DNA of 64,000 bases from Minisyncoccota bacterium (GCA_036399335.1 DASWNF010000009.1:20625-84624); one strand, 5' to 3'. Positions 14,116 through 54,428 are shown, numbered from the stretch's first letter. The notes: generated by a model not told the origin, from the letters alone. Translations and numbers: made by a program.

Positions 14116-14130
14116 CGGTCGCGGGTGTCC

Positions 14131-17916: not shown

Positions 17917-17953
17917 GCAAGCGACAGATGGGCCGGCACGGCAACGAACCCCC

Positions 17954-18590: not shown

Positions 18591-18782
18591 CGGTGCCCCC
18601 TTTGGTTAATCTGCCGGGATTAAACTATATCTCTCGCCTATAGGCAAATTGGATTGACGCTGTATTTTCGCAGACCTATACTACGACCGACTCGGCAGGA
18701 AACTGCCGTGGGCATTTTTAAAAGCGAGCTGCTTGTCGTGGCCCTTATGCCCGACTCCAAAGCAGCGGTAACTCATGGCGCT

Positions 18783-24164: not shown

Positions 24165-24251
24165 GGAGACGTCGCATAGTGGTCTAGTGCACCGCCTTGG
24201 AAAGGCGGCAGACTCGAAAGGGTCTCGAGAGTTCGAATCTCTCCGTCTCCG
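24165..24251 (+). tRNA. tRNA-Ser (anticodon GGA), long variable arm; CCA not encoded
   Basis: Acceptor GGAGACG/CGTCTCC, anticodon stem CCGCC/GGCGG with loop TTGGAAA, long variable arm, T-loop GTTCGAATC. Confidence 0.9.
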
Positions 24252-24267
24252 CCTGATTATTTTCTTA

Positions 24268-34855: not shown

Positions 34856-37800
34856 ATGGAACTTACCCGCACCTTTGGTGGGTTAAGTAAGAACGACGCC
34901 CCAATCGCCGGCGGGAAAGGTGCGTCCCTTGGCGAAATGACCCAGGCGGGTATTCCGGTGCCTCCCGGATACGTTATTCTCTCTTCCGCCTTCGAGCGCT
35001 TTCTTGAGGAGGCAGACCTCATCCAGGAAGTGGAGGCAATTCTCGGACAAGTAGACCATAACGAGGTCCACACCATAGAACGTGCTTCCGAAGAGATCCA
35101 AGGCCTCATCTTGAACGCGAAGATGCCTGAGAATATCGAAACCGATGTTATGAAACTCTTCAGGGAACTCGATACTGAGTACGTTGCGGTGCGCTCATCC
35201 GCGACTGCTGAGGACGGGGCTGAGCACGCATGGGCAGGACAACTCGACAGTTATCTCAATACGACCGAGGAGGCACTCCTAAAGAACGTACAGCGCTGCT
35301 GGGCGTCTCTCTTCACCCCTCGTGCCATCTTCTATCGTTTCGAAAAGGGCTTGCATACGACCAGCATTTCAGTCGCCGTTGTGGTACAGAAAATGGTCGA
35401 CTCTGAAATCTCAGGGATCGCTTTCTCAGTGCATCCAATCACTGAAGACCGGAACCAGCTCATTATCGAATCGGGCTTCGGTCTCGGTGAAGCTATTGTT
35501 TCCGGCCAAGTGACCCCTGACAGCTACGTGGTCGAGAAGCAGCCACGGAAGCTTATCGATAAGAATATTTCGGCCCAAACCCGCGGCATTTACCGTGCTG
35601 AAGAAGGAGGGAATGAGTGGCGAGATATTCCTGAACCAAAAGCTTCCTCTCAGGTGCTCTCCGATGAGCAAATCCTTGAGCTCTCAGAGCTCGTCATACG
35701 AATCGAGACCCACTACGGCTTCCCATGCGATATTGAGTGGGCGTACGAGAAGGGAAGTTTCTATATAACCCAGAGCAGGCCAATTACGACCCTCTCGTCA
35801 TTAACGAATGAGAATAGGCGACCGCTGTATAGGGTAAATGTTGCACGCGATATTTGCCTCGCTACGTTTGAGGTGTGGGCAGAGAGTGATACCAAGTACC
35901 TCAACGACTGGATAGGAGTTACTACTGAGCGGCTAGTCTTGGAAAGAAAGGAAGGAGTGATTACCGCCTATGAGGACGAGCAGATATTCAAGGATGTTAC
36001 TGAACGGCTCACGTATCTCCTGAAGGACCCAGAGTGGTTCAACACCGCAATTGAGAAATATCGGGCGGGAATCAAACGCGCAGAAGAGCTAAAGGGAGTC
36101 CTTCGAGAGAGCCCTTCTAAGGAGAATTTACGAAGGTTGTTTGAGCAACTTGCTCGTACTCAGGGCGGCCTAGCCGTTGTGTATTTTGTCCCTTCAGTCG
36201 CGGGTATACCTGAGGAGATAAAGGAACGAGCGCTTGATGAGCGTAAGAATACAGAAGCGTTTTTCTATAGCTCTGACGAGGTGCTTAGCGAAGCAATTAA
36301 GACCCTATACCCTGACCAAGCTGAGTATGCGCAAATTCTAAGCATCGAGGAACTTACAACAAATCTTCCTTATGTAAGCGAACTGCAGAAACGACTTAAT
36401 CATTTCATCTATTACGATAAGAAGTTCTTCTATGATCAAGGCCTGGAAGTTGTAGAAAATGAATTAGGTATTCAGATTGAAAGGCCTACGCCTACAAGTA
36501 ACACATATCAGAAGCATCAGCGTGACTACACGCTGCTAGGAACCTCCGTCGTGTTCTCAGGGTACTGCGGTAAAGTTACTCAGGATTACTTCTCCTTCTC
36601 CCCGCAGCCGATGTTCATTTATATAAATAATGGTATTTTGTACCACTTTACCTCTGAGGGGGACTCGGCTGGCCGCGCAAAATCATGGGTGCATAAATAT
36701 GGGTCGGCCAAGGAGCTAGACGCGCACAAGAAGGTGCACGACACTCTCCTAAAGGACTATCGCGCCTTTATGGCGAGGGAAGGTCATAGTGGACGCGAGA
36801 GCCTCCCCATATTGCACAAATATTTTACTAACCTACTTCCTCTAATTCTCGTTGCGATTGAAGTCCCAGAGCATGAGGCGGCAATAGACAAGGAAATTAT
36901 TGACGCGTGTTTTAAGATTCGTTCGGAAAACGAGGACGTGTATAAAGTGGGCTTTGACTTCCAAAAGAAGCTACTTAACCAGCTGGAGACAGAAGACGGG
37001 CTTGCGGAAAACGTCCTCTCGCTTACTACGGTAAACGAGTTTGACAGGTATCTTTCCACAGGCGCATTGCCGACTGATCTAGTAAACAGGAATGCATTTG
37101 CTCTTATAGAGCACGGTACTGGAGGCATTATCGTCCATAAAGATGAATCAAAACTTACTGAGTTAGATCGCCAGGCTACGGTTACTGACACCAGCGAGTT
37201 GAAAGGCAATACTGCGTATGGTGGGAGGGCTACGGGAAGAGTGCGCATTATTAAGCTGGTTAAAGACATGGACCAGCTTCAAGAAGGCGAGGTTCTTGTG
37301 GCATCAATGACGGATCCAAGATACGTTCCAGCGATGAAAAAAGCCGCAGCAATCGTTACCGATGAGGGTGGAGTAACGAGCCACGCGGCGATAGTCGCGA
37401 GAGAGCTGAAGAAGCCCTGCATTATTGGTACCAAAGTTGCCACCCAAGTATTAAGAAATGGAGACGACGTTGATGTGGACGCGGACTCTGGAGTAATCCG
37501 CATAGTGAAGCGAGCGCCATTGTTCAAAAAAGAGGATTACGTACTTTCATTTTGGGCGCAGGGAGTGAGTATTTTTGTTACGGATATTCATTTTGATGCT
37601 TACAAACACCTAGGCATTCTCTTCATAATTGAAGATGGAAAATTCAAACAGTACTTCCTAAAGGAAAAATACGAGGAAGCCCTTGATGAAGGAGTCAAGT
37701 TTTACAGTCAGGAGCATGCGGTCCTGGAGTACAAGGAGGCGCTTGAGGCGCATTGCAATAACCTGGCTCAATTCTTTGAGACTCAAATTAAGGGGAAGGA

Positions 37801-38596
37801 GCATCTCGCTCAAAATCAGGTTAGAGAATTTTTTGAGTACACAAAGAAACTCGTAGGGGACTACACCAAAATGAATTTTGAGTATACGGACAAGGCGTAC
37901 ACCAAGAAGGACCAAGATACAGTGATTGAGAGTAATCTTGCGCTCATCACCAAGTTTAAGGACGAAGTACGGGCCGTCATGAACAAGACCCTCTTTGAAT
38001 CAGATGGCTATGTCGCGGAAATTTGGAAAATCTTGGCTAAACAGTTTGACGTGGCTCCCGCAATGCTCGATAACCTGACACAAGAGGAGATACTTGCATT
38101 GTTTAGTGGCTCTAAGCCAGCTGCTGACGTGGCAGATAGGCGGCACGCGTTTGTATATAGTTACGCGAATCGTATGCCAATAGATGGGGAGGAGGCCGTG
38201 AGCATAGTCAAAGAATTTGAGGAGAACGTAGACGCTGCAATGGAGTTGCGTGGCCAGACGGCAAACAAGGGCAAGGTTAGGGGGAGGGTAAAAGTAATCG
38301 CGGTAGATTACAGCGATTTCGGGAAATTAAACAGAGAAATTGAGCGCATGAAGGAGGGTGAAGTCCTCGTCGCCGAGACGACCGCACCCGAGCTGTTGAT
38401 GGCCTGCAAAAAAGCGGGTGCCATCATTACAGATATGGGTGGCTTGATGTCGCATGCCGCTATCGTGAGCCGGGAGTTCGGCATCCCCTGCATTGTTGGA
38501 ACAAAAAATGCGAGCCAGGTGCTCAAAGACGGTGACTTAGTAGAAGTGGATGCCGATACGGGGGTGGTCACCAGGATTGAAACTAGCCGCAGTTAA
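34856..38596 (+). CDS. large PEP-utilizing-enzyme-family protein: N-terminal PEP-synthase/PPDK-type ATP-grasp nucleotide-binding domain plus two phosphohistidine swivel domains (rifampin-phosphotransferase/PEP-synthase-like architecture, duplicated)
   Basis: GGKGASLGEM ... VAVRSSATAEDG in the N-terminal domain. Two copies of the mobile His domain (GGVTSHAAIVARELKKPCIIGTK and GGLMSHAAIVSREFGIPCIVGTK). AT-richer coding. Confidence 0.75.
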   Translation: MELTRTFGGLSKNDAPIAGGKGASLGEMTQAGIPVPPGYVILSSAFERFLEEADLIQEVEAILGQVDHNEVHTIERASEEIQGLILNAKMPENIETDVMKLFRELDTEYVAVRSSATAEDGAEHAWAGQLDSYLNTTEEALLKNVQRCWASLFTPRAIFYRFEKGLHTTSISVAVVVQKMVDSEISGIAFSVHPITEDRNQLIIESGFGLGEAIVSGQVTPDSYVVEKQPRKLIDKNISAQTRGIYRAEEGGNEWRDIPEPKASSQVLSDEQILELSELVIRIETHYGFPCDIEWAYEKGSFYITQSRPITTLSSLTNENRRPLYRVNVARDICLATFEVWAESDTKYLNDWIGVTTERLVLERKEGVITAYEDEQIFKDVTERLTYLLKDPEWFNTAIEKYRAGIKRAEELKGVLRESPSKENLRRLFEQLARTQGGLAVVYFVPSVAGIPEEIKERALDERKNTEAFFYSSDEVLSEAIKTLYPDQAEYAQILSIEELTTNLPYVSELQKRLNHFIYYDKKFFYDQGLEVVENELGIQIERPTPTSNTYQKHQRDYTLLGTSVVFSGYCGKVTQDYFSFSPQPMFIYINNGILYHFTSEGDSAGRAKSWVHKYGSAKELDAHKKVHDTLLKDYRAFMAREGHSGRESLPILHKYFTNLLPLILVAIEVPEHEAAIDKEIIDACFKIRSENEDVYKVGFDFQKKLLNQLETEDGLAENVLSLTTVNEFDRYLSTGALPTDLVNRNAFALIEHGTGGIIVHKDESKLTELDRQATVTDTSELKGNTAYGGRATGRVRIIKLVKDMDQLQEGEVLVASMTDPRYVPAMKKAAAIVTDEGGVTSHAAIVARELKKPCIIGTKVATQVLRNGDDVDVDADSGVIRIVKRAPLFKKEDYVLSFWAQGVSIFVTDIHFDAYKHLGILFIIEDGKFKQYFLKEKYEEALDEGVKFYSQEHAVLEYKEALEAHCNNLAQFFETQIKGKEHLAQNQVREFFEYTKKLVGDYTKMNFEYTDKAYTKKDQDTVIESNLALITKFKDEVRAVMNKTLFESDGYVAEIWKILAKQFDVAPAMLDNLTQEEILALFSGSKPAADVADRRHAFVYSYANRMPIDGEEAVSIVKEFEENVDAAMELRGQTANKGKVRGRVKVIAVDYSDFGKLNREIERMKEGEVLVAETTAPELLMACKKAGAIITDMGGLMSHAAIVSREFGIPCIVGTKNASQVLKDGDLVEVDADTGVVTRIETSRS

Positions 38597-38795: not shown

Positions 38796-41213
38796 ATGGA
38801 ACCTACAACTTCCGCATCGACGGCGCCTCACCCCAGGCGTACTTCGTTCGATGCGCTCGCCCTGTGGGCGCTTACGATAACCGCGTCGCTCGCGGCCGTC
38901 GTATTCATCCCCTCAGCTGGCATACCGTTTATCTATAGCAAGGTGTCGGTCTTGGCCCTCGGCGGCCTTGTCGCCCTTGCGTTCTATGTCCTGGCACGCC
39001 TTACACGCGGCAACATCATCGTGCCGCCTATGGCGCTCGTCGGGGCATTCTGGCTCGTACCGCTCGCGTACGCGCTCTCAAGCCTGTTCTCGGGAGTCGG
39101 CATCATGGCCGGACTCTTCGGTAACGCGCTTGAGACGGACACGCTCGGCTTCATGATCATCCTCGCATCCTTCGCGAGCCTGGTCGCGCTCACCTTCCGT
39201 CGTTCAAGCCAGTACCGGATCTTCTTCAAGGCAGCACTTATCGTGCTCGGGCTCGTGCTTGCCGCCCAAATAGTGTTCCTCATCATCGGCAATACGTCGG
39301 AGTCCTTGTCGGCAACGGCAAACCTCGTCGGTTCCTTCGCCGACCTCGGCATGCTGCTCGGCCTCGGCGTCGCGCTCATCTTGCTTGCGTTCCGTTTCCT
39401 CGAACTCGATGAGCGGATGGTGCGCGTGCTCTGGGCGATTGAAGGCCTTTCGCTCCTCATGCTCGCCTTGGTGAACTCACGTCTCGTCTGGGTCCTCGTG
39501 TCCCTCGTCGCACTCGGCCTCTTCATCGAAGCCATCATGCGTCGCCAGGGCACGAGCAACGACGACGACCTTGAAGGTGGAAGCCTCGTCTCGGACGACG
39601 TTCGTTCGCTTGATAACGCGCCCGCAACCGATCCGCACGGCCTTGCCGCGCCGCTCGTGACGCTCGTCGCCGCGCTCTTCTTCGTCATCGGCGGGAGCAC
39701 CATCGGTACGAGCCTCGCAAACACGCTGGGCGTCAGCTACCTCGATGTCCGTCCGTCTTGGCAGGCCACCTTCGATGTCGGGAGCCATACCTACGCGGCG
39801 TCACCGCTCTTTGGTTCGGGCCCTGGCTCGTTCGTAAGCGAGTGGCTTAAGTTCAAGGACCGCGCGCTTAACGAGACGGTCTTCTGGAACGTCGACTTCA
39901 CGTCAGGTATCGGCCTCATCCCGACATCGTTCATCACGACCGGTATTGCCGGAGCCCTCGCGTGGCTCGCCTTTATCGGTATCTTCCTCTACGTGGGTAT
40001 CAGGTTCCTCCTGTTCCGCGCCCCTGAGGAAGCGTTTGCGCGGTACGTATCGATAGCGACCTTCGTCGGTACCATCTACGTACTTGCGCTCGCCGTCTTC
40101 TCCGTGCCAGGGCCGGTCGTGCTCATCGCCGGCTTCTTCCTCGCCGGACTGTTCGCGTCCTCGCTCCGCTACGGCGGTACGCGGCGTGAACGGGGCATTA
40201 TCTTCTCGCGAAACCCGCGCGTCGGCTTCATTATCGTCTTCGTACTGACGCTGCTTTTGCTGGCGTCCGTCGTGACGGCCTATGTCGTCATTGAGCGGTA
40301 CCTCGCCGACGTCTCGTACCAGAAGGGAACGGCCATGCTCGCAGATGGCGACCTCGCCGGAGCCGATGCGGCCGCGCGCCGCTCACTCGTCTTCGCGGCA
40401 AGCGACCGGGCATACCAGCTCGCCGCAGCCGTAGGCATTGCGAACATGAACCGTATCGCCGCCGATACGACCTTGGCGCCTTCCGAAGCGCAGCAGCAAT
40501 TCCAGGCATCGCTTTCAAGCGCGATCCAGGCATCGCTCGCCGCTACGCAGCTCCGCCCGGACAACTACCAGAACTGGGTAGCGCTCGGCAATGTGTACCA
40601 GACCGTCGTACCGCTCCGCATCGAAGGCGCGTATGAGAACGCGAAAGCCGCATACGAGCGCGCCGTGGAACTGAACCCGACCAACCCGACCCTGCCGTTC
40701 GTCATGGCGCAGCTCGAGATTGCACGCGGGAACGGCCAGGCGGCAGAAGCCGAGCTTGTGAAGGCGATCGGGCTCAAGCGCGATTACACACAGGCCATCT
40801 TCCTCTTGTCACAGCTCGAGGTGCAGCTCGGTAAGGCCCGCGAGGCCCTCCAGGCTGCCGAGGCCGCGGCGTACTTCGCGCCGAACGACCCGGTTGTCCT
40901 CTTCCAGGTCGGTATCCTCCGCTCGGGTACGGGCGACGTCGATGGCTCGGTCCAGGCACTTTCGCGTGCCGTGGAACTCAATCCGCAGTACGCTAACGCC
41001 CGGTTCTTCCTCGCCGTCTCGTACGCAACCAAGGGAGCCTTCGACCAAGCGCTTGCGCAGCTGAATGCCGTTGCGGCACTCTCACCGGAGAACGCTGCAG
41101 CCGTCGACACCTACATCACGGCCCTCGCGCAAGGACGCAACCCGTTCCCGCGCCAGGCGCTTAGCATTCCGCCTCCCGTAACCGACACGCCACAGACAAG
41201 AACCGGACAGTAG
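38796..41213 (+). CDS. O-antigen ligase/Wzy_C-family membrane protein fused to C-terminal TPR repeats (possible O-oligosaccharyltransferase)
   Basis: >10 TM helices, ASPLFGSGPGSF Wzy_C-type motif, then TPR-like repeats (AYERAVELNP, LSRAVELNPQY). Confidence 0.7.
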   Translation: MEPTTSASTAPHPRRTSFDALALWALTITASLAAVVFIPSAGIPFIYSKVSVLALGGLVALAFYVLARLTRGNIIVPPMALVGAFWLVPLAYALSSLFSGVGIMAGLFGNALETDTLGFMIILASFASLVALTFRRSSQYRIFFKAALIVLGLVLAAQIVFLIIGNTSESLSATANLVGSFADLGMLLGLGVALILLAFRFLELDERMVRVLWAIEGLSLLMLALVNSRLVWVLVSLVALGLFIEAIMRRQGTSNDDDLEGGSLVSDDVRSLDNAPATDPHGLAAPLVTLVAALFFVIGGSTIGTSLANTLGVSYLDVRPSWQATFDVGSHTYAASPLFGSGPGSFVSEWLKFKDRALNETVFWNVDFTSGIGLIPTSFITTGIAGALAWLAFIGIFLYVGIRFLLFRAPEEAFARYVSIATFVGTIYVLALAVFSVPGPVVLIAGFFLAGLFASSLRYGGTRRERGIIFSRNPRVGFIIVFVLTLLLLASVVTAYVVIERYLADVSYQKGTAMLADGDLAGADAAARRSLVFAASDRAYQLAAAVGIANMNRIAADTTLAPSEAQQQFQASLSSAIQASLAATQLRPDNYQNWVALGNVYQTVVPLRIEGAYENAKAAYERAVELNPTNPTLPFVMAQLEIARGNGQAAEAELVKAIGLKRDYTQAIFLLSQLEVQLGKAREALQAAEAAAYFAPNDPVVLFQVGILRSGTGDVDGSVQALSRAVELNPQYANARFFLAVSYATKGAFDQALAQLNAVAALSPENAAAVDTYITALAQGRNPFPRQALSIPPPVTDTPQTRTGQ

Positions 41214-41216: not shown

Positions 41217-42926
41217 ATGGTGCGACAGATACTGTCTCGCATATCAGCACCGGTAAGCGGCCTTCATCAGGCCGCTTACCTGCTTGCTGGGCTTACCCTC
41301 GCGTCCCAAGTGCTTGCGCTCTTGCGCGACCGCATGTTCGCGCACCTCTTCGGCGCAGGGGAAGTACTCGACCTCTACTACGCGGCATTCCGTATCCCGG
41401 ACCTGGTGTACGCGCTCGTCGTGTCGCTTGTCTCGGCGTACGTGCTCATCCCGCGCATTGCCGGGCTCCTGGACGGTCCTGACGGAGATGCAGGGGAGGG
41501 CAGGGCGAGGGCGCGCGAGCTCATCTCGCACACGGCGTCCTTCCTCTTCCTTGGTGCCGGAGCCATCGCGCTCGTTGCGGCGGTGCTTGCGCCCCAGCTT
41601 CTCGCAATCTTGTTCCCGGCCCTTACGGAATCGGTACACGCAGACCAATTCATCGGCCTTGTCCGGCTCCTTCTGCTCCAGCCTATCCTGCTCGGGCTTT
41701 CGAGCGTGCTTTCAAGCGTGACACAGCTGAAGCGCCGCTTCTTCCTGTTCGCCTTGTCGCCCGTGCTCTACAACCTCGGCATCATCCTCGGCACCGCGCT
41801 CCTCTACCCGCACTATGGGCTTATGGGCATCGGCCTTGGCGTGCTCATCGGTGCCATCGCGCACGTCGCGATACATATTCCGGTCGTCCGAAATGCCGGG
41901 CTTATGCCGCGTCCGGTGCTGCCTGACTTCAGGCTCTTGTGGAGCGTGGCGAAGGACTCGGCACCGCGCTCGCTCGCGCTTACGCTCGGTTCCTTCTCAA
42001 CCCTACTTCTCGTCGCCCTTGCGTCCCGGACGGGGGAGGGCGGCGTCTCGGTCTTCATGCTTGCCGCAAACCTTGAAGCCGTGCCCCTCTCGCTCATCGG
42101 TGCCGCATACGCTACGGCGGCATTCCCGGTCCTTGCCGAACAGGTGGGTGGAAAGCGCCTTGAGGAGTTCAAGGCGACCCTCGTCACGGCATTCAGGCAC
42201 ATCATCTTCTGGTCTTCGGTGATCACCGTTCTTGCCATCGTGCTCCGTGCGCATATCGTGCGCGTCTTGTACGGTTCGGGCGCCTTTGACTGGGACGACA
42301 CCCGTCTCACTGCGGCCATCTTCGCCGTGCTCGTCATCGGCCTCTTGGCCCAAGGCATCGTTCTGCTCGCCTCGCGCGCCTTCTACGCTTCAGGGCGCTC
42401 CTGGAACCCGCTGGCCGTGCAGTTCGTCGGTCTCGTGCTTTCGGTCGTAAGCGCCTATGCCATGCTCTCCGTAGCCTATGAGTACCCGCCTATCCGGTAC
42501 TTCTTCGAAGCCCTGCTCCGTGTACCCGAAGTCCAAGGGGCGCCCATCGTCTTTATCGCTATCGGCGCGACCTTGGGGCAGCTCGCTATGGCCGCCATCG
42601 CGCTCGGCTCGCTTCGTGCGGTTGCGCCCGGGATGGCATCATCGCTTGCGCGGCCGTTGTTCGAGGGACTGGGCGCGGCTATCGTCGGCGGGGCGGCCGC
42701 GTATGTGGCACTTGCCTTCATGGGAGCGCTCGCACCGCTCACGTCGCTCGCCGTAGTGGTTGCGGAAGGCGCCGTGGCTGGTATCGTGGGCTTAACCGTT
42801 TCCGGCACGATACTCGCCTACCTTGAGAACCAGGAATACCACGGCCTGGTCGCCTCACTTCGGCGGCTTACCTCAGCCGAGGCACTCGAGCCCTACGGAT
42901 CAATGAATGACCGATCAAATACGTAA
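41217..42926 (+). CDS. murJ: lipid II flippase MurJ (MviN family)
   Basis: 14-TM MOP-superfamily topology. The N-terminal LRDRMFAHLFGAGEVLDLYYAAFRIPDLV is a typical MurJ signature. Confidence 0.85.
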   Translation: MVRQILSRISAPVSGLHQAAYLLAGLTLASQVLALLRDRMFAHLFGAGEVLDLYYAAFRIPDLVYALVVSLVSAYVLIPRIAGLLDGPDGDAGEGRARARELISHTASFLFLGAGAIALVAAVLAPQLLAILFPALTESVHADQFIGLVRLLLLQPILLGLSSVLSSVTQLKRRFFLFALSPVLYNLGIILGTALLYPHYGLMGIGLGVLIGAIAHVAIHIPVVRNAGLMPRPVLPDFRLLWSVAKDSAPRSLALTLGSFSTLLLVALASRTGEGGVSVFMLAANLEAVPLSLIGAAYATAAFPVLAEQVGGKRLEEFKATLVTAFRHIIFWSSVITVLAIVLRAHIVRVLYGSGAFDWDDTRLTAAIFAVLVIGLLAQGIVLLASRAFYASGRSWNPLAVQFVGLVLSVVSAYAMLSVAYEYPPIRYFFEALLRVPEVQGAPIVFIAIGATLGQLAMAAIALGSLRAVAPGMASSLARPLFEGLGAAIVGGAAAYVALAFMGALAPLTSLAVVVAEGAVAGIVGLTVSGTILAYLENQEYHGLVASLRRLTSAEALEPYGSMNDRSNT

Positions 42927-45716: not shown

Positions 45717-46454
45717 ATGAACCAAAAACAGCGCACCACTGCCGCCCTCATCGCACTCTTCCTTGTCGCCGGAGGAGCCTATGCCTTCCTCGAGTGGCAG
45801 GCGAACCCGTCCTCCGTCCAGGTGGCTGACGGCACCGCTACGACGACTCCGGGCGCCCCAGCGACGACTACGGAAGAGAAGCCGGCAGAGCCGGAACCCG
45901 TACCGGCGACGTCTTCTACGCACGCATACGGTACGGTGACCCTCCGCTTGAACGAGACCGCATCGTTCCCTGACGGGCTTTCGATGCGCGTCGCCGCCGT
46001 AACCGAGGACAGCCGTTGTCCGCAGGACGTGCACTGCATCCAAGCCGGTACTGTTCGCATCTCGCTTCGCACCCGTTCTGCCATGGGAGCAAGCACCAGC
46101 GACCTCGCGCTCGGCGCAAGCGTCACGACCGAGGCTGAGCGCATTACCTTCCTGCGCGTGGCTCCCGGCAAGAACTCCACCCAACCTATTACCGATGCCG
46201 ACTACCGCTTTACCTTCGAGGTGGCCAAGAAGGACGCACCGCCTGCCCCTGTCGCAGGACCCTGCTTCGTCGGCGGCTGTTCCGCGCAGCTTTGCAGTGA
46301 CACTCCGTCTATGGCGTCTACCTGCGAATACCGCTCAGAATATGCCTGCTATAGAAATGCGACCTGCGAGCGCCAAGCCAGCGGCCAGTGCGGTTGGACG
46401 GAGACTTCAGAGCTTCGTGCGTGTCTCAGGAATCCTCCGGAGGACGAGGAATAG
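45717..46454 (+). CDS. hypothetical secreted/lipoprotein-like protein with a Cys-rich C-terminal domain
   Basis: N-terminal TM/signal and Thr/Pro-rich linker. 8+ Cys in the last 70 aa. Confidence 0.55.
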   Translation: MNQKQRTTAALIALFLVAGGAYAFLEWQANPSSVQVADGTATTTPGAPATTTEEKPAEPEPVPATSSTHAYGTVTLRLNETASFPDGLSMRVAAVTEDSRCPQDVHCIQAGTVRISLRTRSAMGASTSDLALGASVTTEAERITFLRVAPGKNSTQPITDADYRFTFEVAKKDAPPAPVAGPCFVGGCSAQLCSDTPSMASTCEYRSEYACYRNATCERQASGQCGWTETSELRACLRNPPEDEE

Positions 46455-46719: not shown

Positions 46720-47847
46720 TTACGAGAGGTTCAAATCGACCTCTTCCACTTCGTCGCGCGCCCCCTCCGCCCGGATTTGGTCACTTATGATCTTGGGGAA
46801 GGTAACCGATATCGTTGTACCGCGGTTGAGGACGCTTCGGACGAATATTTTGCCGTGATGCGCCCGGACGATCTCATTGACGATTGCGAGCCCGAGACCC
46901 GAAGTACCGCCGTTTACGCCGCGTGCGCGCGAAGTGTCCGCCCGGTAGAACGGCTGGAATATATAGGACAGGTCTTCCTTGGCAATGCCGATGCCCGTGT
47001 CTGAAACCGAGACCGTTACCTTGTCACCTTCGCTGCGTACCAAAACCCTCACTTCACCGCCCGAATGTTGGGGCGTATAGTTTAGGGCGTTTTTAACAAG
47101 GTTCGTCAGTACTTGCTCGATGCCTGTCGAGTTGCCGAGGATGAGGTGCTCGTCGCGCGAATCAACTGAGAGCGCGATGCCGCGGGACTCGGCAAGAGGC
47201 CGGTGGCGCTCCGTAACGGCTTCGGCAACGATGCCGAGGTCGAGCTCGATGAGGGAAACCTTGCTCGGACGGATCATCGTCTCGAAAGACAGGAGGTTAT
47301 TAATCGTTTCCGAAATACGGTCCAGTTCCGTGCTCGTCGTCTCGAGGACGTCGCGTACGTCAGCGTTAATCTTGGGGTCCATGAGCGCTACTTCCGTGTT
47401 GGTCTTGATGATGGCAAGGGGCGTACGGAGTTCGTGTGCCATGTTACCGATAAAGCGTTTCTGGAACTGGAGTGAGTCCCGGGTAGGCCGGAGCGCGAAG
47501 CGCGCCATAAGGTAGCCAAAGAAGACGGTAAGCAGTACGAGGCCTGTAAGCGCGAACCTAAGGGTCTCGAGCCGCACGGCGCGAAGGGACTCCCCAAGCG
47601 GGGTTACGGCTCCCGTACTCCCCGTAAGGAGGGCATCGACATACGTGCCGACTGCGGTAATCGTACTTTCTTGCTGGAACCTAAGGGCAACGCCGAATAC
47701 GAGGACGAGGATAATCGTCAGGAGTACCTGGAGCAGGATTATGTTGACCGTGCTCCGTACGTACGGGTTATGCCGGTACCTATCCGTTAAGTCGGTAGCC
47801 GATACCGCGGATAGTTTCGAAGAGAGGATCGGAATCTTCATAGTCAT
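46720..47847 (-). CDS. two-component sensor histidine kinase
   Basis: 2 TM helices, HisKA (MAHELRTPL) and HATPase_c (N/G1/F/G2 boxes). Its ORF start overlaps the end of the RR gene by 68 bp, so the true start is probably internal. Confidence 0.85.
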   Translation of the reverse strand: MTMKIPILSSKLSAVSATDLTDRYRHNPYVRSTVNIILLQVLLTIILVLVFGVALRFQQESTITAVGTYVDALLTGSTGAVTPLGESLRAVRLETLRFALTGLVLLTVFFGYLMARFALRPTRDSLQFQKRFIGNMAHELRTPLAIIKTNTEVALMDPKINADVRDVLETTSTELDRISETINNLLSFETMIRPSKVSLIELDLGIVAEAVTERHRPLAESRGIALSVDSRDEHLILGNSTGIEQVLTNLVKNALNYTPQHSGGEVRVLVRSEGDKVTVSVSDTGIGIAKEDLSYIFQPFYRADTSRARGVNGGTSGLGLAIVNEIVRAHHGKIFVRSVLNRGTTISVTFPKIISDQIRAEGARDEVEEVDLNLS

Positions 47848-48457
47848 CTAGCTTTTTACGAAGGTTCTTCATGTGTACGTCGAGCACGTTACTGAAGGCA
47901 GGGAAGTCGAAGCTCCACACGTGGTCCAGGACCGTTTCGCGTTTTACGGCCTCGTTCGGATTGCGCATGAAGAACTCAAGGAGCGAGAACTCTTTAAGGG
48001 TAAGGGAAACCTCTTTGCCGCCCTTGGTAACCGTGTGCTTTCCGGGGTCGAGGGTAATGTCGCGGATAGCAAGCACGGACGGCAACGCGTGCTCCGGGCG
48101 GCGGAGGACCGCGTTAATGCGGGCCACAAGCTCGTCGAAGGAGAACGGCTTCGAAAGGTAGTCGTCAGCGCCGAGGTTAAGGAGGTCGACCTTGGTCTCG
48201 GTCTCGTCACGGGCCGTAAGGACGATGATAGGAGTTGAGACGCCCGCTTCGCGCACATCCTTGCAGATGGTGGCACCGTCGACGCCAGGGAGCATGAGAT
48301 CGAGCAGGATGACGTCGTACTCGTCGCGGTAGAGCATCATGCGGGTACGCGCCTTCTCGGCGTCAGCAAGCCAGTCCACGGTAAAGCCCTTGAGTTCAAG
48401 GCCTTTTTTCGTGGCTTCTGCCAGCTTCTCTTCGTCTTCTACGATTAGGATACGCAT
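47780..48457 (-). CDS. OmpR-family response regulator
   Basis: Receiver domain (DEEKLAE ... LDLMLPGVDG ... KP) plus a winged-helix DNA-binding domain. Confidence 0.9.
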   Translation of the reverse strand: MRILIVEDEEKLAEATKKGLELKGFTVDWLADAEKARTRMMLYRDEYDVILLDLMLPGVDGATICKDVREAGVSTPIIVLTARDETETKVDLLNLGADDYLSKPFSFDELVARINAVLRRPEHALPSVLAIRDITLDPGKHTVTKGGKEVSLTLKEFSLLEFFMRNPNEAVKRETVLDHVWSFDFPAFSNVLDVHMKNLRKKLDDYEDSDPLFETIRGIGYRLNG

Positions 48458-48553
48458 AGGATGATTATTTAAAGTACCTCTGCAGTATCAAGCATAGAGC
48501 ATGAACGCTTCATGAATTATCTTCATGAAGCGTATATTTATTATTATCTAGAA

Positions 48554-48940
48554 TTAGGTGCCTTTCTGCGCTTCAAGCTCAAGCGTCTTAATGCGAGCGG
48601 CGAGCGGGTCAAAGTGTTGGTGGAATGTCCCGACCTGCTTGTCGATGGCAATGGCGAAGTCGCCACGGGTAGTCTCAAATTCCTTCTGCACTGAGTCCCT
48701 GAAGGCGTTAATGTCCTGTCTGGTCGTCGAAAATTCTTCGGCTGTTGACCGCGCCAAACTATCAATTTCTTCACGTGTCAGCACAAACTCTGCAGTCATG
48801 GTTTTACGCAAATCCTCAATCGAGCCCTCTAGAGTCCCAACAGAACCCTTCAAATTCTCAATCGAACCCTTTAAGGTCTCACTTAGTTGGTCAATTTTCG
48901 CCTCAAGCGCCTTCATTGGGTCGAGTATATCATCCTGCAT
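48554..48940 (-). CDS. hypothetical coiled-coil protein, AT-richer
   Basis: Repetitive heptad-like sequence (LKGSIENLKGSVGTLEGSIEDL). Confidence 0.5.
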   Translation of the reverse strand: MQDDILDPMKALEAKIDQLSETLKGSIENLKGSVGTLEGSIEDLRKTMTAEFVLTREEIDSLARSTAEEFSTTRQDINAFRDSVQKEFETTRGDFAIAIDKQVGTFHQHFDPLAARIKTLELEAQKGT

Positions 48941-48951
48941 ATTTTTCGGAA

Positions 48952-49410
48952 TTATCGGGTAACACAATAAGGCTCGCTGTCTTCTATGGAGGCCTCGGCA
49001 GCAGCAGGGGCGCAAATAGTGAGGCGCCCAGATGCAGTGTCACGGACAATGGTATATCCGGTATCGTAATCCTCACCCGTAATCCCAACGGAGGGATCGA
49101 CAGGGAGCTCGGCGATGTAGAGGGGGACGAGGCAGGAGCGCAAGTCGAATTGTCGAGCCGCTATACGTACGGCATCAATAGGGATGTCTCCTGGACAGTC
49201 TCCTGTGCCAGCCAATAAGCCGCGATTCTCTGCCATACGCGTACTGAGAGCATTCAGGATTGCGTGTATGTTGCTTACGCGCTGAGTATTGCGCGCTTGT
49301 GCAAATTGGCGCGCAGGATTAATGGCAACGAGAACACTTGAAGCGAGTATGGCGATGAGGCCCATTACTATTAATATTTCAATCAGGGTAAATCCGTGGG
49401 TCTGGCGCAT
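48952..49410 (-). CDS. type IV pilin / pseudopilin (prepilin-type N-terminal cleavage/methylation domain)
   Basis: MRQTHG|FTLIEILIVMGLIAILA class III signal peptide with Glu at +5. Confidence 0.85.
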   Translation of the reverse strand: MRQTHGFTLIEILIVMGLIAILASSVLVAINPARQFAQARNTQRVSNIHAILNALSTRMAENRGLLAGTGDCPGDIPIDAVRIAARQFDLRSCLVPLYIAELPVDPSVGITGEDYDTGYTIVRDTASGRLTICAPAAAEASIEDSEPYCVTR

Positions 49411-49516
49411 ACCCTTAGTCTAGGTTCCGGTTAAGAAAAACAGGCGTAATTAGAGGTGCGCACAGGGCAGCTAGGGCAGGAATTATTTTAGGTATATTCC
49501 ATAGCGCACACATCCC

Positions 49517-49861
49517 TTACCGATGAATCCGTTCTGAATAAGTGGTATGACCAACCCGAGAAAAAGCGATGACTGACTCGCCGCTATCGTCAGGCAGGAC
49601 AAGGCAGGTAGATTCTTTGGATAGTCGCACCACATCTCCATCCGTATCCGGGTAGTAGGAAGAGTCTTGTACGATCAAGATGCGGACGGCCGCGCCGCAG
49701 GCACGGGCAGCATGTTTCGCTATAACCCTGTTTTCCAGGTCCGTGCTATTCATTCTCGAATAGAAGCTTGACTGGGTAGCCGTAATCGCGAACGAGGTGA
49801 GTGTGAGCGAAAGGAGGAATATGGTCACTAGGGCGATGTAAGCGCGGTGCGTATGAGTCAT
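49517..49861 (-). CDS. hypothetical protein with N-terminal TM in the pilus operon (possible atypical minor pilin)
   Basis: Lies between pilin genes on the same strand. Hydrophobic N-terminus without a canonical GFxxxE motif. Confidence 0.45.
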   Translation of the reverse strand: MTHTHRAYIALVTIFLLSLTLTSFAITATQSSFYSRMNSTDLENRVIAKHAARACGAAVRILIVQDSSYYPDTDGDVVRLSKESTCLVLPDDSGESVIAFSRVGHTTYSERIHR

Positions 49862-50325
49862 GACGCAGTAAGCACTAAAAGGCGCTTAACTTCTCGAACT
49901 ACGGGCTGCCCGCTTCTGGTTCGTGTAGATAGCCGTATCTCTAGATGCAGGTCTGCACCCCTCCTTTCAAAGGAAAGCACCTCTGTGGTTATATCTCCAT
50001 CGCTTACCAGAAGGACGCCGTGACTATCCTCTAATACGATATGGTCTTCTGTCACATAGATGCTGAAGACCCCTTCAGGCGTGCGGGCGCTAAGCCGGCG
50101 CCCATGTCCATTTGGACCTGGCTCTTCAATTGTTTGGGCCTGGCTGACTACGTACTCAACCTTCTGTACGACAAACTCCAGCTCATCTGTGAGCCGTGCA
50201 TCAGTCTCGACCCGCGCTGCACTATCGGTAACGGCGCGAAAGGCAGTCGCTATACCCGTCACGAGTACGGAGAAGAGCGCAATATAGAGAAGCAGTTCAA
50301 TCATCGTGAAGCCGCGCATATTCAA
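49858..50325 (-). CDS. prepilin-type N-terminal domain protein (minor pilin/pseudopilin)
   Basis: MNMRG|FTMIELLLYIALFSVL. Confidence 0.8.
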   Translation of the reverse strand: MNMRGFTMIELLLYIALFSVLVTGIATAFRAVTDSAARVETDARLTDELEFVVQKVEYVVSQAQTIEEPGPNGHGRRLSARTPEGVFSIYVTEDHIVLEDSHGVLLVSDGDITTEVLSFERRGADLHLEIRLSTRTRSGQPVVREVKRLLVLTAS

Positions 50326-51782
50326 GTACTTTCATACGCTTCAATGAACCCGCGACCGCCCTCGTCTGTTGAACCGATAAACAGGGTATTGCCGCGGCAC
50401 GAAAGCGCGGTTCCCGTACCGGCGAGATTAACCGGTACGGCTTGCTCGACATAGGATTCGTTTATTGGAGCAAGCGTAAGGAGACGTTTGCCGGATAATA
50501 CGAGGACAAGGCCTTGCCGCACGATGAGGCCGTTAACGCTTTCCGGCTGTAGCGACTTTCCCAGGTCTACGCTAGCAAGGGGAGTCGGTGCTTGCAGATT
50601 AGTAGTGTCGAGTACCCAAAACTCGGGTGCATTATTTACATACGTGCGGCCAAGGTACACTTGTCCGTCCCGCACAAATATACGATTACCAAGACCGAAA
50701 TTCTGAGATCCGGGTGCATCCCATGTCCCGACAATGCGCGGACGTGAGGGTTCGCGTATATCGACAATAATAAGTTCCCTTAAGGGATCGCTTGTGGCGA
50801 GATATGCGTGCCCGTTGGAAACGGCGATGCCGTGTACGCTCCTCCCAACACGCACCCCTCCGAGCCACGCTGGACTCGAAGGGTTCCGGACATCGATAAT
50901 ATTGAATTCCATTCCGTCTACCGTTTTCTCGAGACCTACGTATAGGATTTCCTCGGCGTAAAGCAAGCTTTTTCCGGGGGTGGTCAAACTCCCTGCGCTT
51001 ATAGCCCTCGCGCCGGTAGTCGTACCTAGCGCAAGGCTACCGACAAGCTCCCCCTGAGGTGAGAGTATGTGCACTTGGCTGCACGCATACGACATACACG
51101 TGGCAGGGCTTGCGCTGCCAAAGGCATTAGCCGCATATATGTAGCCCTGTCCAGCAACAACAGCGGCATACCCCGTCCTTGAGGTGGGAGCGTTGTCATG
51201 TGCCCTAAGTAGTTGCGGATGTTCGGGGAAGTTACCCAGGGAATAAAAAGACAGAGTGGCATCACCTGGTCCGAGTGTCGTTGAGAGTGACGTCACGAGG
51301 AGGTCTCTGCTAATTGCGATGCCCGAAATTGCATAAGAGCCTGCGCCTAAGGGGAATGAGGCTGCTTTCCTAAGCGCAGACCACGTACCGAAGAGAATTG
51401 GGCTGCAAGACTCAAACCTGGCAGCATCAGGGTTAGTGATGAGTGATGCTACTTGGACGCGTCTGTGTTCTCCGCGAGCATCGGTCCACCCGACATAGGC
51501 CTCGACAAAGGCCGCGAGCGGCGCATGAAGGGGCACCAGGCTGAGCTCCTGCTCAAAGCCGTCTTCCGTAGTTGTTGAGGTGTTGGCGAGTGAGGTGAAG
51601 TCTTTGTTTGCGCGGGTTTTGGCACGGTCGAGCAGGGTATCGGCGACCGCATAGGCGTGCCGCTCTAGACGCGCGTTCTCGAGCATTAAGGGTGCGCCGA
51701 GTACCAATAGTGACGCGGCAATAATCCCGGTCATCCCTACGGCGCAGGCAATAAGGAGCTCGATAATAGAGAAGGCGCGCAT
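50322..51782 (-). CDS. large pilin-like protein: prepilin-like N-terminus plus C-terminal LVIVD-repeat beta-propeller-like domain
   Basis: MRA|FSIIELLIA N-terminus. Repeated xLVIVD-like units (IIVDIREPSRPRIVG, FWVLDTTN, YIYAANAFG ...). Confidence 0.65.
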   Translation of the reverse strand: MRAFSIIELLIACAVGMTGIIAASLLVLGAPLMLENARLERHAYAVADTLLDRAKTRANKDFTSLANTSTTTEDGFEQELSLVPLHAPLAAFVEAYVGWTDARGEHRRVQVASLITNPDAARFESCSPILFGTWSALRKAASFPLGAGSYAISGIAISRDLLVTSLSTTLGPGDATLSFYSLGNFPEHPQLLRAHDNAPTSRTGYAAVVAGQGYIYAANAFGSASPATCMSYACSQVHILSPQGELVGSLALGTTTGARAISAGSLTTPGKSLLYAEEILYVGLEKTVDGMEFNIIDVRNPSSPAWLGGVRVGRSVHGIAVSNGHAYLATSDPLRELIIVDIREPSRPRIVGTWDAPGSQNFGLGNRIFVRDGQVYLGRTYVNNAPEFWVLDTTNLQAPTPLASVDLGKSLQPESVNGLIVRQGLVLVLSGKRLLTLAPINESYVEQAVPVNLAGTGTALSCRGNTLFIGSTDEGGRGFIEAYEST

Positions 51783-51783
51783 A

Positions 51784-52212
51784 TTAGTGGATGCTAATGC
51801 TGCCGATTCGGCTTACCGACAATATTCTTACTTTCCCCGGGCCGGTATCGATCCGCACGGCTACCGGCTGCTTCACATCCCCAGATTGTGGGAGGAAAGA
51901 GATTTCCGTTGGCTCAAGCTGCAAGTGACCGGAAAGCGGAATACGCTCGTACGTAACATCGGCATCAAGGAGCGCTATCTCATCCGAAGTAATGCGTACC
52001 GACTGTATTGTGCCGGCGTGGCACGCCGCTTCCCGGCATGACTCAGTCATCGCAAGGACACGGGCCCGCCGCAGGAAGAGCATTATTTGGTCAACTTCAG
52101 ATTGGGCCGCTACTCGACGGTACTCGCTGGCACCTGTCCATGCGGCACCTCCCAGTAAGACGGTCAGTATGCCCAGTACGCACATGAGTTCGATGAGAGT
52201 GAACGCGCGCAT
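51784..52212 (-). CDS. prepilin-type pseudopilin (GspH-like)
   Basis: MRA|FTLIELMCVLGILTVL from the internal Met. Confidence 0.75.
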   Translation of the reverse strand: MRAFTLIELMCVLGILTVLLGGAAWTGASEYRRVAAQSEVDQIMLFLRRARVLAMTESCREAACHAGTIQSVRITSDEIALLDADVTYERIPLSGHLQLEPTEISFLPQSGDVKQPVAVRIDTGPGKVRILSVSRIGSISIH

Positions 52213-52213
52213 G

Positions 52214-53302
52214 TTACGGGGAGTTGAGGGTATTCGTAATGCTGTATATGGGAGAAACAATGGCCATCGCCACGAAGCCGATAATTAGGCCCATAAACAC
52301 CATGAGGACTGGTTCGACCAAGTCGGTTAAAAGGTTTATGGTTTCAGCCAAGTCTTCCTCAAACAAGTCAGCCGCCGTCCCGAGCGTCTTACTTAAGGAT
52401 CCGCTTGCCTCACCGGCGGCAGCCAGCTCGACTAGTGACGGATGATAGAGCTCGGGATGGCTGCCTAGGGAGTGAGAGAAGCGATTGCCGTGTTCAATCT
52501 CTTTGCGGAGCGTCTCAAGGCTCTTTTGATATAGGTGATGCTCGATGCCCTCACGGACCAGTACAAGGGAGGGTATGAGCGGGGTACCGCTGCCAAGAAG
52601 TATTGAAAGGGTGCGTGAGATGTGGCCGCTGTAATAGGTACGGGATAAGTCCCGTACGAAGGGAAGCTGCAAGGTGAGTTTCTGTATCATGCGGCGTATG
52701 CGCGCTGTACGCAGGCCCAACCCAACGCCTGTCGTAAGCAGGAGTGCGGCCAGTAGTAGTGCCATTCCGTGAGAAGCGAACAGGCTCGAAACTACCATAA
52801 GTACTTTTGTAGATAATGGAAGCACCGTGCCAAAGCTGCGGAAGATGGGTACGATTTTAGGCAACGCGTAGAGCATGAGAAAAGTCAGCACGCCACCTGC
52901 GCCACATATGATAATTAAAGGGTACACACATGCCGTTCGAACCTTTCGAATAACCACACGCCTCTTCCTGAGAAGGGTTGCGGCCTGGGCCAAGTAGAGA
53001 GACAGGTTCCCACTTTGCTCGCCAAGCCGTATGAGGTGGATTTCAAAGACCGGAATACTGGGTATGGCGCGTGGAAGCGCTACGGAAAGTTGAACTCCTG
53101 ACCGAATTGACTCCTCTACGCGGGCGAGCAATGCACGACGCGTACCGTCTGCTGTACTCCCGAGTAACTGCAAGGATGCGTGGATTGGTATGCCTGATCG
53201 AAGGAAGAGTGAAAGCCGTTCGTAGAGAAGGATCCGGCCCATGACCGTCATGCGAAGGTCGGTGCGCCAGGACTGGACTGCCGTGACTAGTGAGCTAAGC
53301 AT
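52214..53302 (-). CDS. pilC: type IV pilus / type II secretion platform protein PilC/GspF family
   Basis: Two GspF repeats and 3 TM segments. Confidence 0.85.
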   Translation of the reverse strand: MLSSLVTAVQSWRTDLRMTVMGRILLYERLSLFLRSGIPIHASLQLLGSTADGTRRALLARVEESIRSGVQLSVALPRAIPSIPVFEIHLIRLGEQSGNLSLYLAQAATLLRKRRVVIRKVRTACVYPLIIICGAGGVLTFLMLYALPKIVPIFRSFGTVLPLSTKVLMVVSSLFASHGMALLLAALLLTTGVGLGLRTARIRRMIQKLTLQLPFVRDLSRTYYSGHISRTLSILLGSGTPLIPSLVLVREGIEHHLYQKSLETLRKEIEHGNRFSHSLGSHPELYHPSLVELAAAGEASGSLSKTLGTAADLFEEDLAETINLLTDLVEPVLMVFMGLIIGFVAMAIVSPIYSITNTLNSP

Positions 53303-54428
53303 GGCGGAGACAGGTAAGCTCTTCTATAGAAGTGTGACCTTGTGCAGCCTTTCCGTACCCGTCTTCGAGAAGGGAAGGAATACCGTTCGCACGGATGCGG
53401 GCAACGAGTGACGTACGGTCAGGTCTATGTAAAAACTCCTCGCGAAACTCCTGGGTAACCTCAAAAACCTCATAGAGTGCAATACGTCCTTTGAAGCCAC
53501 TGCCTCGGCAAGTGCGGCACTCATGCGAAGGAGGGCGCGCCGCATGTGCGCCACAAGCCCTGCATCGCTTACGCACCAAGCGTTGTGCTATGACGAGGGA
53601 AACGGTTGAGGCAATGACATACGGATCTACTCCCAGATCCTGAAGTCGGGGGAAGGCGCCTGCTACGTCGTTTGCATGCAGCGTCGTAAGTACGAGGTGT
53701 CCGGTCAGGGCAGCGTGCGCGGCAAGGCTGGCGGTCTCCTGGTCCCTGACCTCGCCGACCATAATGACATCTGGATCCTGGCGTAAGAGGCTTCTGAGTC
53801 CGACCGAGAAGGTGTACCCCGCTTGTTGGTTTACTTGTGTTTGTACCACTTCCGCAAGCTCGTACTCCACCGGCTCCTCAATACTAACCATGCTTTTTGT
53901 ACCGGTAGCCAAGAATCGCATACAGGCGTAGAGGGTAGTAGTCTTCCCGCTTCCCGTAGGGCCCGTCACGATAACCATGCCGTGCGCCTGTCCCAGGGTT
54001 CGCAAGACAGACTCCCTTTGTGCATTGGTGAGCGCAAGTGAATCCAGCGAAAAAGACTCAGCGACCAGGAACCGGAGTACTGCGTTCTCGCCATGTATGG
54101 CAGGAGCAATCGAAAGACGGATATCAATAGTGGAGTCGTCACAAATATACTTGAACTTTCCGTCCTGTGGCAGGAAGTGCTCGTCTATCCTTAGTCCAGC
54201 CAGGACTTTTAGTCTTGCGACAAGTTCGTCGTGTGCATCTTTGGGACATTCTTGCAGGGCTCGCACCTGCCCGTCTACGCGTATTCGTGCGATAACTTTA
54301 GTACTCGTGGGAGTAAGATGCAGGTCAGAAGCGCCCTCGGCGCACGCCTGGGTAATAAGCGAATCAAGTAGGTGGGGGCTAAGTACGCCAGACGAGCGTG
54401 AAGTTAATGGGGCGGTAATCTTTTCCAT
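53295..54428 (-). CDS. pilB: type IV pilus assembly ATPase PilB/GspE family (short form, C-terminal tetracysteine)
   Basis: Walker A GPTGSGKTTT, Asp box, Walker B, His box, CRAC ... CRTC tetracysteine. Confidence 0.88.
   Translation of the reverse strand: MEKITAPLTSRSSGVLSPHLLDSLITQACAEGASDLHLTPTSTKVIARIRVDGQVRALQECPKDAHDELVARLKVLAGLRIDEHFLPQDGKFKYICDDSTIDIRLSIAPAIHGENAVLRFLVAESFSLDSLALTNAQRESVLRTLGQAHGMVIVTGPTGSGKTTTLYACMRFLATGTKSMVSIEEPVEYELAEVVQTQVNQQAGYTFSVGLRSLLRQDPDVIMVGEVRDQETASLAAHAALTGHLVLTTLHANDVAGAFPRLQDLGVDPYVIASTVSLVIAQRLVRKRCRACGAHAARPPSHECRTCRGSGFKGRIALYEVFEVTQEFREEFLHRPDRTSLVARIRANGIPSLLEDGYGKAAQGHTSIEELTCLRHA

Follow-up and report, generated by a model that had tools for sequence, protein, structure and literature searches.

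Identification of the pilus cassette

The window analysed here (64 kb; bases 20625–84624 of a 124-kb contig) comes from a metagenome-assembled genome of Candidatus Paceibacterota, and contains a genuine seven-gene type IV pilus-like operon of an ultrasmall Paceibacteria cell belonging to the candidate phyla radiation (CPR). This conserved cassette lies on the minus strand at positions 48952–54428 of the window (Table 1), and encodes an ATPase without an N-terminal regulatory domain (PilB), a platform protein (PilC), one major pilin and four minor pilins. One of the minor pilins, 486 aa long, is modular: in its predicted structure, a seven-bladed LVIVD propeller comes after an ordinary pilin helix and a small sheet. 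Many Patescibacteria have the same set of genes, in the same order, around this propeller pilin. We consider it fairly likely that the cassette is a compact set of type IV filament (T4F) genes belonging to a cell with a single membrane, and that the propeller pilin is a binding module displayed at the filament tip.

The wider stretch 48554–54428 holds eight tightly packed open reading frames (ORFs) on the same strand, all of which were found where a sequence-only reading had placed them. Matches to PF00437, PF00482 and N_methyl (PF07963) bear out its proposal of a compact type IV pilus operon and, peripheral points apart, its interpretation holds.

The propeller-bearing minor pilin

AlphaFold2 modeling of the 486-aa protein, with a homologue alignment as input, gave a mean predicted local distance difference test score (pLDDT) of 89.4 and a predicted template modeling score (pTM) of 0.82. 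In this model, a pilin helix (residues 3–60) is followed by a four-stranded pilin sheet (residues 71–116), both making up a small pilin module, and the 28 strands within residues 137–485 form the seven four-stranded blades of an LVIVD beta-propeller. Pfam analysis revealed a single LVIVD match above the cut-off (residues 313–354; 33.3 bits against 20.2). Thus, both the repeat match and the propeller fold that characterize LVIVD-repeat beta-propellers (PF08309/IPR013211, the LVIVD repeat) were found, and a pilin module followed by a folded domain foreign to type IV pili is the arrangement of the modular type IV pilins sensu Raynaud et al. 2021. The sequence-only reading had recognized a prepilin-like N-terminus and LVIVD repeats in this protein and had named structure prediction as a check, which returned the pilin helix and the seven-bladed propeller.

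The N_methyl match of the protein itself is sub-threshold (E-value, 0.08), and the N-terminal parts of 10 out of 17 homologues are matched by this model. Besides an identical protein from a 'Candidatus Paceibacterota bacterium' metagenome-assembled genome, a search of 5.8 billion proteins returned about 20 full-length homologues, most of them having the canonical N-terminus RG↓F(S/T)xLE (arrows mark putative cleavage sites). The alanine at position −1 (MRA↓F) is unusual, most family members being of the RG↓F...E5 type, yet it was found again in orthologues. When 1.84 billion cluster representatives were searched with a profile, 7231 matched at E ≤ 1e-30; among the 150 best of these, over 100 are full-length, with a size of about 500 aa. 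Two cysteines of the propeller pilin are invariant, namely C126, which lies just past the pilin module, and C462, which belongs to the last blade, and C229 and C234 are nearly so; a C126–C462 disulfide probably closes the propeller onto the linker. When the propeller-pilin profile was compared with PDB chains, nothing was found below an E-value of 0.1, and a profile of the pilin module alone matched no solved minor pilin. The label "I-type" for this pilin is therefore based on gene position and a weak match to PilV (E-value, 0.028).

Filament machinery and classification

In PilB, the PF00437 match (E-value, 3e-108) covers nearly the entire length of the protein (residues 19–371). A Walker A motif (GPTGSGKT) starts at residue 156, and the zinc-type CxxC...CxxC arrangement, already read from the sequence together with the shortness of this 377-aa ATPase, consists of CRAC (residues 289–292) and CRTC (residues 304–307). 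No MshEN/N1 domain was found in PilB by Pfam; the protein comprises the N2 and C-terminal domains only, which makes it similar to ComGA in its short length. Among solved structures, the extension ATPases PilF, GspE and PilB are nearest to it (E-values, 1e-83 to 1e-71), matches to PilT retraction ATPases being far weaker (about 1e-30). PilC is matched by PF00482 over two stretches (E-value, 2e-47); the Joint Genome Institute (JGI) gene call for it is 345 aa long, with the start at 53251. Against the NCBIfam equivalogs, PilB scores 383 bits with GspE, 357 with PilB and 257.9 with ComGA, and PilC 225 bits with GspF, 168.5 with Thermus-type PilC and 134.4 with ComGB. All of these scores are far under the respective cut-offs; PilB and PilC are members of the T4F superfamily outside any curated subtype.

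Three of the components by which the T4F superfamily is recognized are encoded by the cassette: a PilB/GspE-family ATPase, a PilC/GspF platform, and pilins with class III signal peptides, in which a short leader with Gly or Ala at position −1 precedes a hydrophobic helix with Glu5 (MRA↓FTLIE, MRA↓FSIIE, MRG↓FTMIE, THG↓FTLIE and, without Glu5, HRA↓YIALV). A fourth, the dedicated prepilin peptidase (PilD), was seen neither among the window ORFs scanned nor among the genes within 10 kb of its ends. Of the components of type IVa pili (T4aP), PilM/N/O and PilT are missing from the window, as they are from the cassette of the 58 related loci described below, and the PilB of the window has no MshEN domain. 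Assignment to ComG fails on the scores (ComGA, 257.9 against a cut-off of 300; ComGB, 134.4 against 240) and on com genes, none of which lies in the window or is conserved in the related loci; the composition is still ComG-like.

For a type II secretion system (T2SS), neither GspC/L/M nor the GspD secretin was found in the window. A type II secretion-like pseudopilus, pushing proteins through the cell wall instead of forming long pili, would agree with GspE and GspF giving the best NCBIfam scores and with the weak matches of the minor pilins to GspH, GspJ and GspI. Still, we regard it as very improbable: the GspE/GspF and minor-pilin scores fall far short of the equivalog cut-offs, GspC/L/M or a secretin were found neither in the window nor in the related loci, and a bulky propeller on a piston would be without precedent. 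Moreover, we know of no T2SS described in single-membrane bacteria.

The other pilins of the cassette

N_methyl matches above the gathering cut-off (21.2 bits) were obtained for three further ORFs, of 158, 155 and 152 aa, and Glu5 is present in all three products (H-type, J-type and major pilin). For the first, which had been read as a GspH-like pseudopilin, the probable start codon is an ATG (52212) that lies two bases past the pilC stop and gives the N-terminus MRA↓FTLIEL. This pilin is weakly matched by the GspH and ComGD models of NCBIfam, and its cysteine pair C59/C64 is conserved in the orthologue alignment. The second, the other prepilin-type protein of the sequence-only reading, probably begins at 50319, which is also the start called by JGI (MRG↓FTMIELL), and is weakly matched by the GspH, GspJ and ComGF models. 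The 152-aa product contains four cysteines and is the best conserved pilin of the cassette, showing 53% identity to orthologues in loci whose other pilins reach 24–32% (the propeller pilin, about 30%). Based on this conservation and on the match of its N-terminal helix region to solved major pilins, it is taken as the major pilin, in line with the earlier description of a major-pilin-like gene.

The 114-aa product had been described as an atypical protein with an N-terminal transmembrane segment. This description had to be replaced: in the AlphaFold2 model (pLDDT, 90), a helix (residues 4–65) is followed by a four-stranded sheet, and the model superposes on EpsI, GspI and GspK, so that the protein is predicted to be a fourth minor pilin, with a GspI/GspK-like fold. 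A single-sequence search returned only the protein itself, and a profile search was needed to detect homologues. The orthologues from this search and from the related loci all start with (R/K)G↓(F/Y)IAL, the copy in the window being HRA↓YIALV, and the residue at position +5 is Ile, Met, Leu, Val, Thr or Phe rather than Glu in all of the 44 orthologues in which the cleavage motif was found. They share the cysteine pair C55/C86, and most of them are 126–174 aa long, the window copy being shorter at the C-terminus. For Glu5-less minor pilins, a place at the top of the tip complex has been proposed (PMC9934059), and, by analogy, this protein is probably the topmost subunit.

Two of the five pilin genes, those of the H-type (51784–52212, minus strand) and the Glu5-less pilin (49517–49861, minus strand), are missed by the JGI gene calls. 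A pattern scan, which is not exhaustive because the H-type pilin also escaped it, detected no other prepilin-motif ORFs in the 64-kb window. The same contig carries genes for a DsbA-like thioredoxin (window positions 5139–5828, plus strand) and for VKOR (about 9720–10166 of the window, plus strand), a disulfide-forming pair that fits the cassette, since cysteine pairs are conserved in all five pilins.

Conservation of the cassette in related loci

Related loci were collected by a profile scan of one genome per GTDB species, with a 12-sequence alignment subset of the propeller pilin as the query. In total, 58 loci encode relatives of the propeller pilin, 57 of them as a complete ORF. Nearly all belong to Patescibacteria (Paceibacterota, Kaiser-, Adler-, Zambryski-, Doudna-, Lloyd-, Taylor- and Staskawiczbacteria), and two records with other taxon labels are probably mislabelled. 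Gene content was scored with hidden Markov models of the cassette proteins against six-frame ORFs, counting only loci with enough flank. PilB was present in 43/44 and PilC in 48/49 loci, whereas the pilins were found in 40/52 (H-type), 51/56 (J-type), 51/54 (Glu5-less) and 34/43 (major pilin). The complete colinear set of seven genes occurs in 29 loci, the recurring order being PilB, PilC, H-type pilin, propeller pilin, J-type pilin, Glu5-less pilin and major pilin; the same order was seen in loci retrieved via P0016 and P0012. As the loci were selected by the propeller pilin, these counts show that the pilin lives in the cassette, not that every such cassette has it. A variant cassette (L055–L065) is without the H gene, and has a J-like ORF of 50–65 aa and a more distant propeller pilin (about 140–200 bits). 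Clustering of the ORFs in the 58 loci revealed no conserved flanking genes beyond housekeeping genes, a surface protein and a kinase.

The Glu5-less subunit reaches 650–1387 aa in eight loci (L011, L013, L014, L018, L024, L025, L048 and L049). All four of those scanned carry a recognizable domain, VWA in L013, L024 and L048 and SpaA_2 (prealbumin-like) in L011. The enlarged subunit is thus a second, variable modular pilin within the same cassette.

One locus (L041) contains a second cluster at 12570–18741, consisting of genes for PilM, an unknown protein (possible PilN), PilO, another unknown protein, PilB with MshEN, a receiver protein and PilT. It starts 0.8 kb after the compact cassette, from which it is separated by a ComF-like phosphoribosyltransferase gene. 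That genome, therefore, has T4aP-type machinery besides the cassette, and the presence of this separate neighboring cluster indicates that the cassette is a second T4F gene set rather than T4aP machinery.

Possible function of the propeller pilin

The mechanism that we favor is modeled on the GspH-I-J-K complex and on the PilABC tip complex of Streptococcus sanguinis. A prepilin peptidase encoded elsewhere would cut the pilins after Gly or Ala at position −1, and the four minor pilins would assemble on PilC as a priming complex, the Glu5-less subunit being the topmost. Driven by PilB, the major pilin would then be added from below and push this complex outward, to become the tip of the filament. 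The acidic propeller, its last blade probably stapled to the linker by the C126–C462 pair, would be displayed at or beside the tip as a module binding a ligand or the host surface, possibly acting also as a PilY1-like cap. Retraction or alignment proteins would be encoded elsewhere or absent. By these analogies, the 486-aa protein is a candidate tip adhesin, as the sequence-only reading had proposed.

Several observations weigh against this assignment. Both the tip location and the disulfide are themselves inferred. Position −1 is occupied by Ala instead of Gly in three of the five pilins, and processing and assembly have to be assumed, because no prepilin peptidase, PilM/N/O or PilT was found near the cassette. 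Neither Peptidase_A24 (PilD) nor PilM/N/O, PilT or a secretin was detected by Pfam in the main window ORFs of at least 150 aa (overlapping alternative-frame ORFs being left out), as the sequence-only reading had stated for pilD, pilM/N/O and the secretin, and none of them was found in the called genes within 10 kb beyond each window end. A crude scan of the 58 related loci for the A24 peptidase motif G.GD.K was also negative. CPR bacteria are generally assumed to have a single membrane, in which case a secretin would not be expected. Furthermore, the fold matches of the propeller are generic WD40 and YncE-type proteins without a functional signature pointing to a ligand. Finally, the propeller shows roughly the same degree of conservation as the other minor pilins, while variable modules (VWA or SpaA-like) sit on the Glu5-less subunit in other species, so that a conserved structural or priming role fits at least as well as that of a host-specific adhesin.

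Carried further, the last point leads to a propeller that serves above all to cap or prime the filament rather than as the adhesin, in functional analogy to the C-terminal propeller of PilY1 but fused to a pilin, with host specificity residing elsewhere, for example in the modules of the Glu5-less subunit. The fixed position of the propeller pilin in the cassette, a divergence rate like that of the H and J pilins, its many invariant residues and the domains of the enlarged Glu5-less subunits agree with such a role, and the conserved C-terminal propeller of PilY1 has been proposed as a carrier contacting the minor pilins (PMC8179133). We nevertheless consider it quite unlikely. The Glu5-less subunit is minimal here, which leaves the propeller as the only bulky exposed module. 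The PilY1/PilC family (Neisseria_PilC/IPR008707) gave no sequence match to the propeller pilin in Pfam or PDB and is absent from the 50–60 top fold matches listed. The closest precedent, PilX2, is needed for binding and dispensable for filament extrusion.

It is also unlikely, in our estimation, that the cassette is a Com-like pseudopilus for DNA or nutrient capture. As the Paceibacteria counterpart of the ComG operon of monoderms, it would seize extracellular DNA by means of the propeller pilin and supply it to uptake through ComEC. Its composition is that of ComG, with an ATPase lacking MshEN/N1 and with alignment and retraction genes unlinked in the 58 loci; the separate PilM-PilO-PilB(MshEN)-PilT cluster beside the cassette of L041 points in the same direction, and the core genome of Parcubacteria includes ComEC, ComF and DprA (PMC4508563). 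However, the ComGA and ComGB scores are below not only their cut-offs but also the GspE and GspF scores, and no com genes are conserved beside the cassette in the related loci. The propeller domains are acidic (median isoelectric point, 4.9; net charge, −8; 43 loci), which is unfavorable for DNA binding, and the YncE fold match is no better than the WD40 matches.

A bolder proposal, which we find doubtful, is that the cassette represents a distinct, Patescibacteria-specific T4F class, minimal and Com-like, without PilM/N/O or PilT. In it, the propeller pilin would prime or cap the filament in place of the non-pilin PilY1 of T4aP, the Glu5-less subunit would be an exchangeable adhesin carrier, and the whole would be the main organelle of host contact or uptake in Paceibacteria.

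Genes surrounding the cassette

Table 1. Features of the pilus locus and its surroundings (positions counted from the first base of the window).
Feature	Position	Strand	Length or motif	Basis
Extension ATPase, PilB/GspE/ComGA class	53295..54428	-	377 aa	PF00437, Walker A, CxxC pairs
Platform protein, PilC/GspF/ComGB class	52214..53302	-	362 aa	PF00482
H-type (GspH/FimU/ComGD-like) minor pilin, probable start	51784..52212	-	142 aa	N_methyl, 29.9 bits
Modular minor pilin with predicted propeller	50322..51782	-	486 aa; MRA↓FSIIELL	AlphaFold2, LVIVD match
J-type (GspJ/PilW/ComGF-like) minor pilin, probable start	49858..50319	-	153 aa	N_methyl, 25.2 bits
Glu5-less minor pilin (predicted fold)	49517..49861	-	114 aa; HRA↓YIALV	AlphaFold2, orthologues
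Putative major pilin	48952..49410	-	152 aa; MRQTHG↓FTLIEILIV	N_methyl, 31.2 bits
Coiled-coil protein	48554..48940	-	128 aa	sequence reading
Palindromic hairpin (candidate)	48505..48533	.	perfect 12-bp stem	consensus scan
OmpR-type response regulator (47780-48457) and histidine kinase (46720-47847)	46720..48457	-		Response_reg/Trans_reg_C, HisKA/HATPase_c
805-aa protein	38796-41213	+	805 aa	TPR models only, C-terminal quarter

The coiled-coil gene that had been assigned to the operon is present and closely linked, although its start had to be moved: it begins 12 nt past the major-pilin stop, with the ATG at 48940 rather than 49015. The product has no visible signal or transmembrane segment and no family match above the cut-off, and no homologue was found in the 58 related loci. 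Judging by this distribution, the gene is linked here and lies outside the conserved cassette. The hairpin 3' of it has no T-run after it on the minus strand; as a candidate from a consensus scan, it may mark the end of the pilus transcription unit.

The flanking regulator/kinase pair was also present as described. A promoter-like sequence (TTGATA-16-AATAAT, 48491–48464) lies just upstream of the response regulator; together with the hairpin, it separates the regulator from the coiled-coil gene, and these two elements, both from consensus scans only, suggest that the pair is probably a transcription unit of its own, being separately promoted rather than part of the operon. Orthologous pairs are found, co-directional, downstream of the cassette in four other loci (L009, L010, L019 and L026), only the regulator being found in L045, and these orthologues (about 400 bits for the regulator) are far better conserved than the pilins. 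Based on this recurring position, a regulatory link is possible, the pair being a candidate regulator of the pilus operon.

The idea that the 805-aa protein is an O-antigen-ligase/TPR fusion acting as a PglL/PilO-like glycosyltransferase was rejected. No Wzy_C model matches it and nothing was detected outside the TPR region, the N-terminal portion of about 570 aa giving no Pfam or NCBIfam match. A gene for a MurJ-type flippase (41217–42926) adjoins it.

Among the remaining main ORFs of at least 150 aa in the window, Pfam detected housekeeping genes. Between a tRNA-Arg gene and the kinase gene lies an ORF (45717–46454, plus strand) for a secreted-looking protein of 245 aa with a Cys-rich C-terminus, which has a weak Heavy_Cys_CGP match in the JGI annotation. 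A 347-aa reverse transcriptase ORF (24268–25311, minus strand; RVT_1 E-value, 4e-23) abuts a tRNA-Ser gene (24165–24253, plus strand). It could be a retron, a diversity-generating retroelement or a group II intron remnant; nothing convincing was found when a template/variable repeat pair of a diversity-generating retroelement was sought at 23.5–28.8 kb. A 1246-aa protein with PPDK_N and two PEP-utilizers mobile domains is encoded at 34856–38596 (plus strand) in a dip of G–C content (0.46–0.51 against about 0.57), and may have been acquired horizontally.

Relevance to host contact

Ultrasmall in size, abundant and so far uncultivated, Paceibacteria and related bacteria are believed to spend their lives attached to other cells. 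Their core genomes encode few surface structures, type IV pili being among them, and type IV pilus genes have been reported in the core genome of Parcubacteria (PMC4508563). The fixed seven-gene set found across 57 species-level genomes, the confident model of the propeller pilin and the variable Glu5-less subunit provide testable targets for host contact, and two pilin genes missed by automated annotation have been brought to light on the contig. As an annotation, the result is solid and useful, and experiments on host contact of CPR bacteria could reasonably be directed at it; to a specialist it is unsurprising.

Comparison with known systems

In the literature that was searched, no paper was found on this cassette, on the structure of its propeller pilin or on its distribution. 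The Pam pili reported on bioRxiv as a novel pilus system in CPR bacteria are assembled by donor-strand exchange and are unrelated to the cassette.

The closest precedent from experiments is PilX2 of the T4P-2 system of Saccharibacteria TM7x, which is needed for efficient host binding and not for filament extrusion (PMC11623550). It is likewise a minor pilin of a CPR bacterium, its signal peptide being non-canonical and its C-terminal part a beta-propeller of seven blades (PMC11623550). The propeller of PilX2 is made of RCC1 repeats instead of LVIVD repeats, and its pilin genes are located in a locus apart from the machinery locus with PilM/N/O.

Modular pilins are presented at the tip of the filament (PMC8179133, PMC9934059). 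In S. sanguinis, also a monoderm, PilB (vWA) and PilC (lectin) combine a small pilin module with a folded non-pilin module, and a Glu5-less PilA with a GspI fold is proposed to sit on top (PMC8179133, PMC9934059). That system has three minor pilins, against four here, as well as PilM/N/O and PilT, and the module found here is a beta-propeller. Architectures combining IPR012902 and IPR013211 are already listed in Dataset S1 of Raynaud 2021, with one, two and five IPR013211 repeats in 8, 8 and 7 proteins, respectively, and a 12-repeat protein from Falkowbacteria (PMC8179133). None of these LVIVD pilins has been studied so far.

Four consecutive minor pilin genes, one of them Glu5-less, are also found in the GspH-I-J-K, FimU-PilV-PilW-PilX and ComGD-GE-GF-GG sets. 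The members of the cassette, however, are below the family cut-offs, the bulky module is on the second gene rather than on the Glu5-less one, and the major pilin gene is the last, not the first. PilY1/PilC, the tip adhesin of T4aP, also has a seven-bladed propeller associated with a minor-pilin tip complex and may be regarded as a functional analogue; it is a non-pilin protein with a propeller of another family, whereas here the propeller protein is the pilin itself.

The cassette resembles ComG in having seven genes, which encode a short ATPase, a platform protein and, besides one major pilin, four minor ones, and in having no PilM/N/O or PilT; the peptidase would, as for ComG, be encoded elsewhere. 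It differs from ComG in the gene order, the larger major pilin, predicted to be disulfide-bonded, and the propeller-bearing minor pilin. The propeller pilin and its cassette are, thus, an uncharacterized member of a large and already catalogued type of modular pilins; they extend the modular-pilin concept and the PilX2 result of Saccharibacteria to another CPR class, and overturn nothing.

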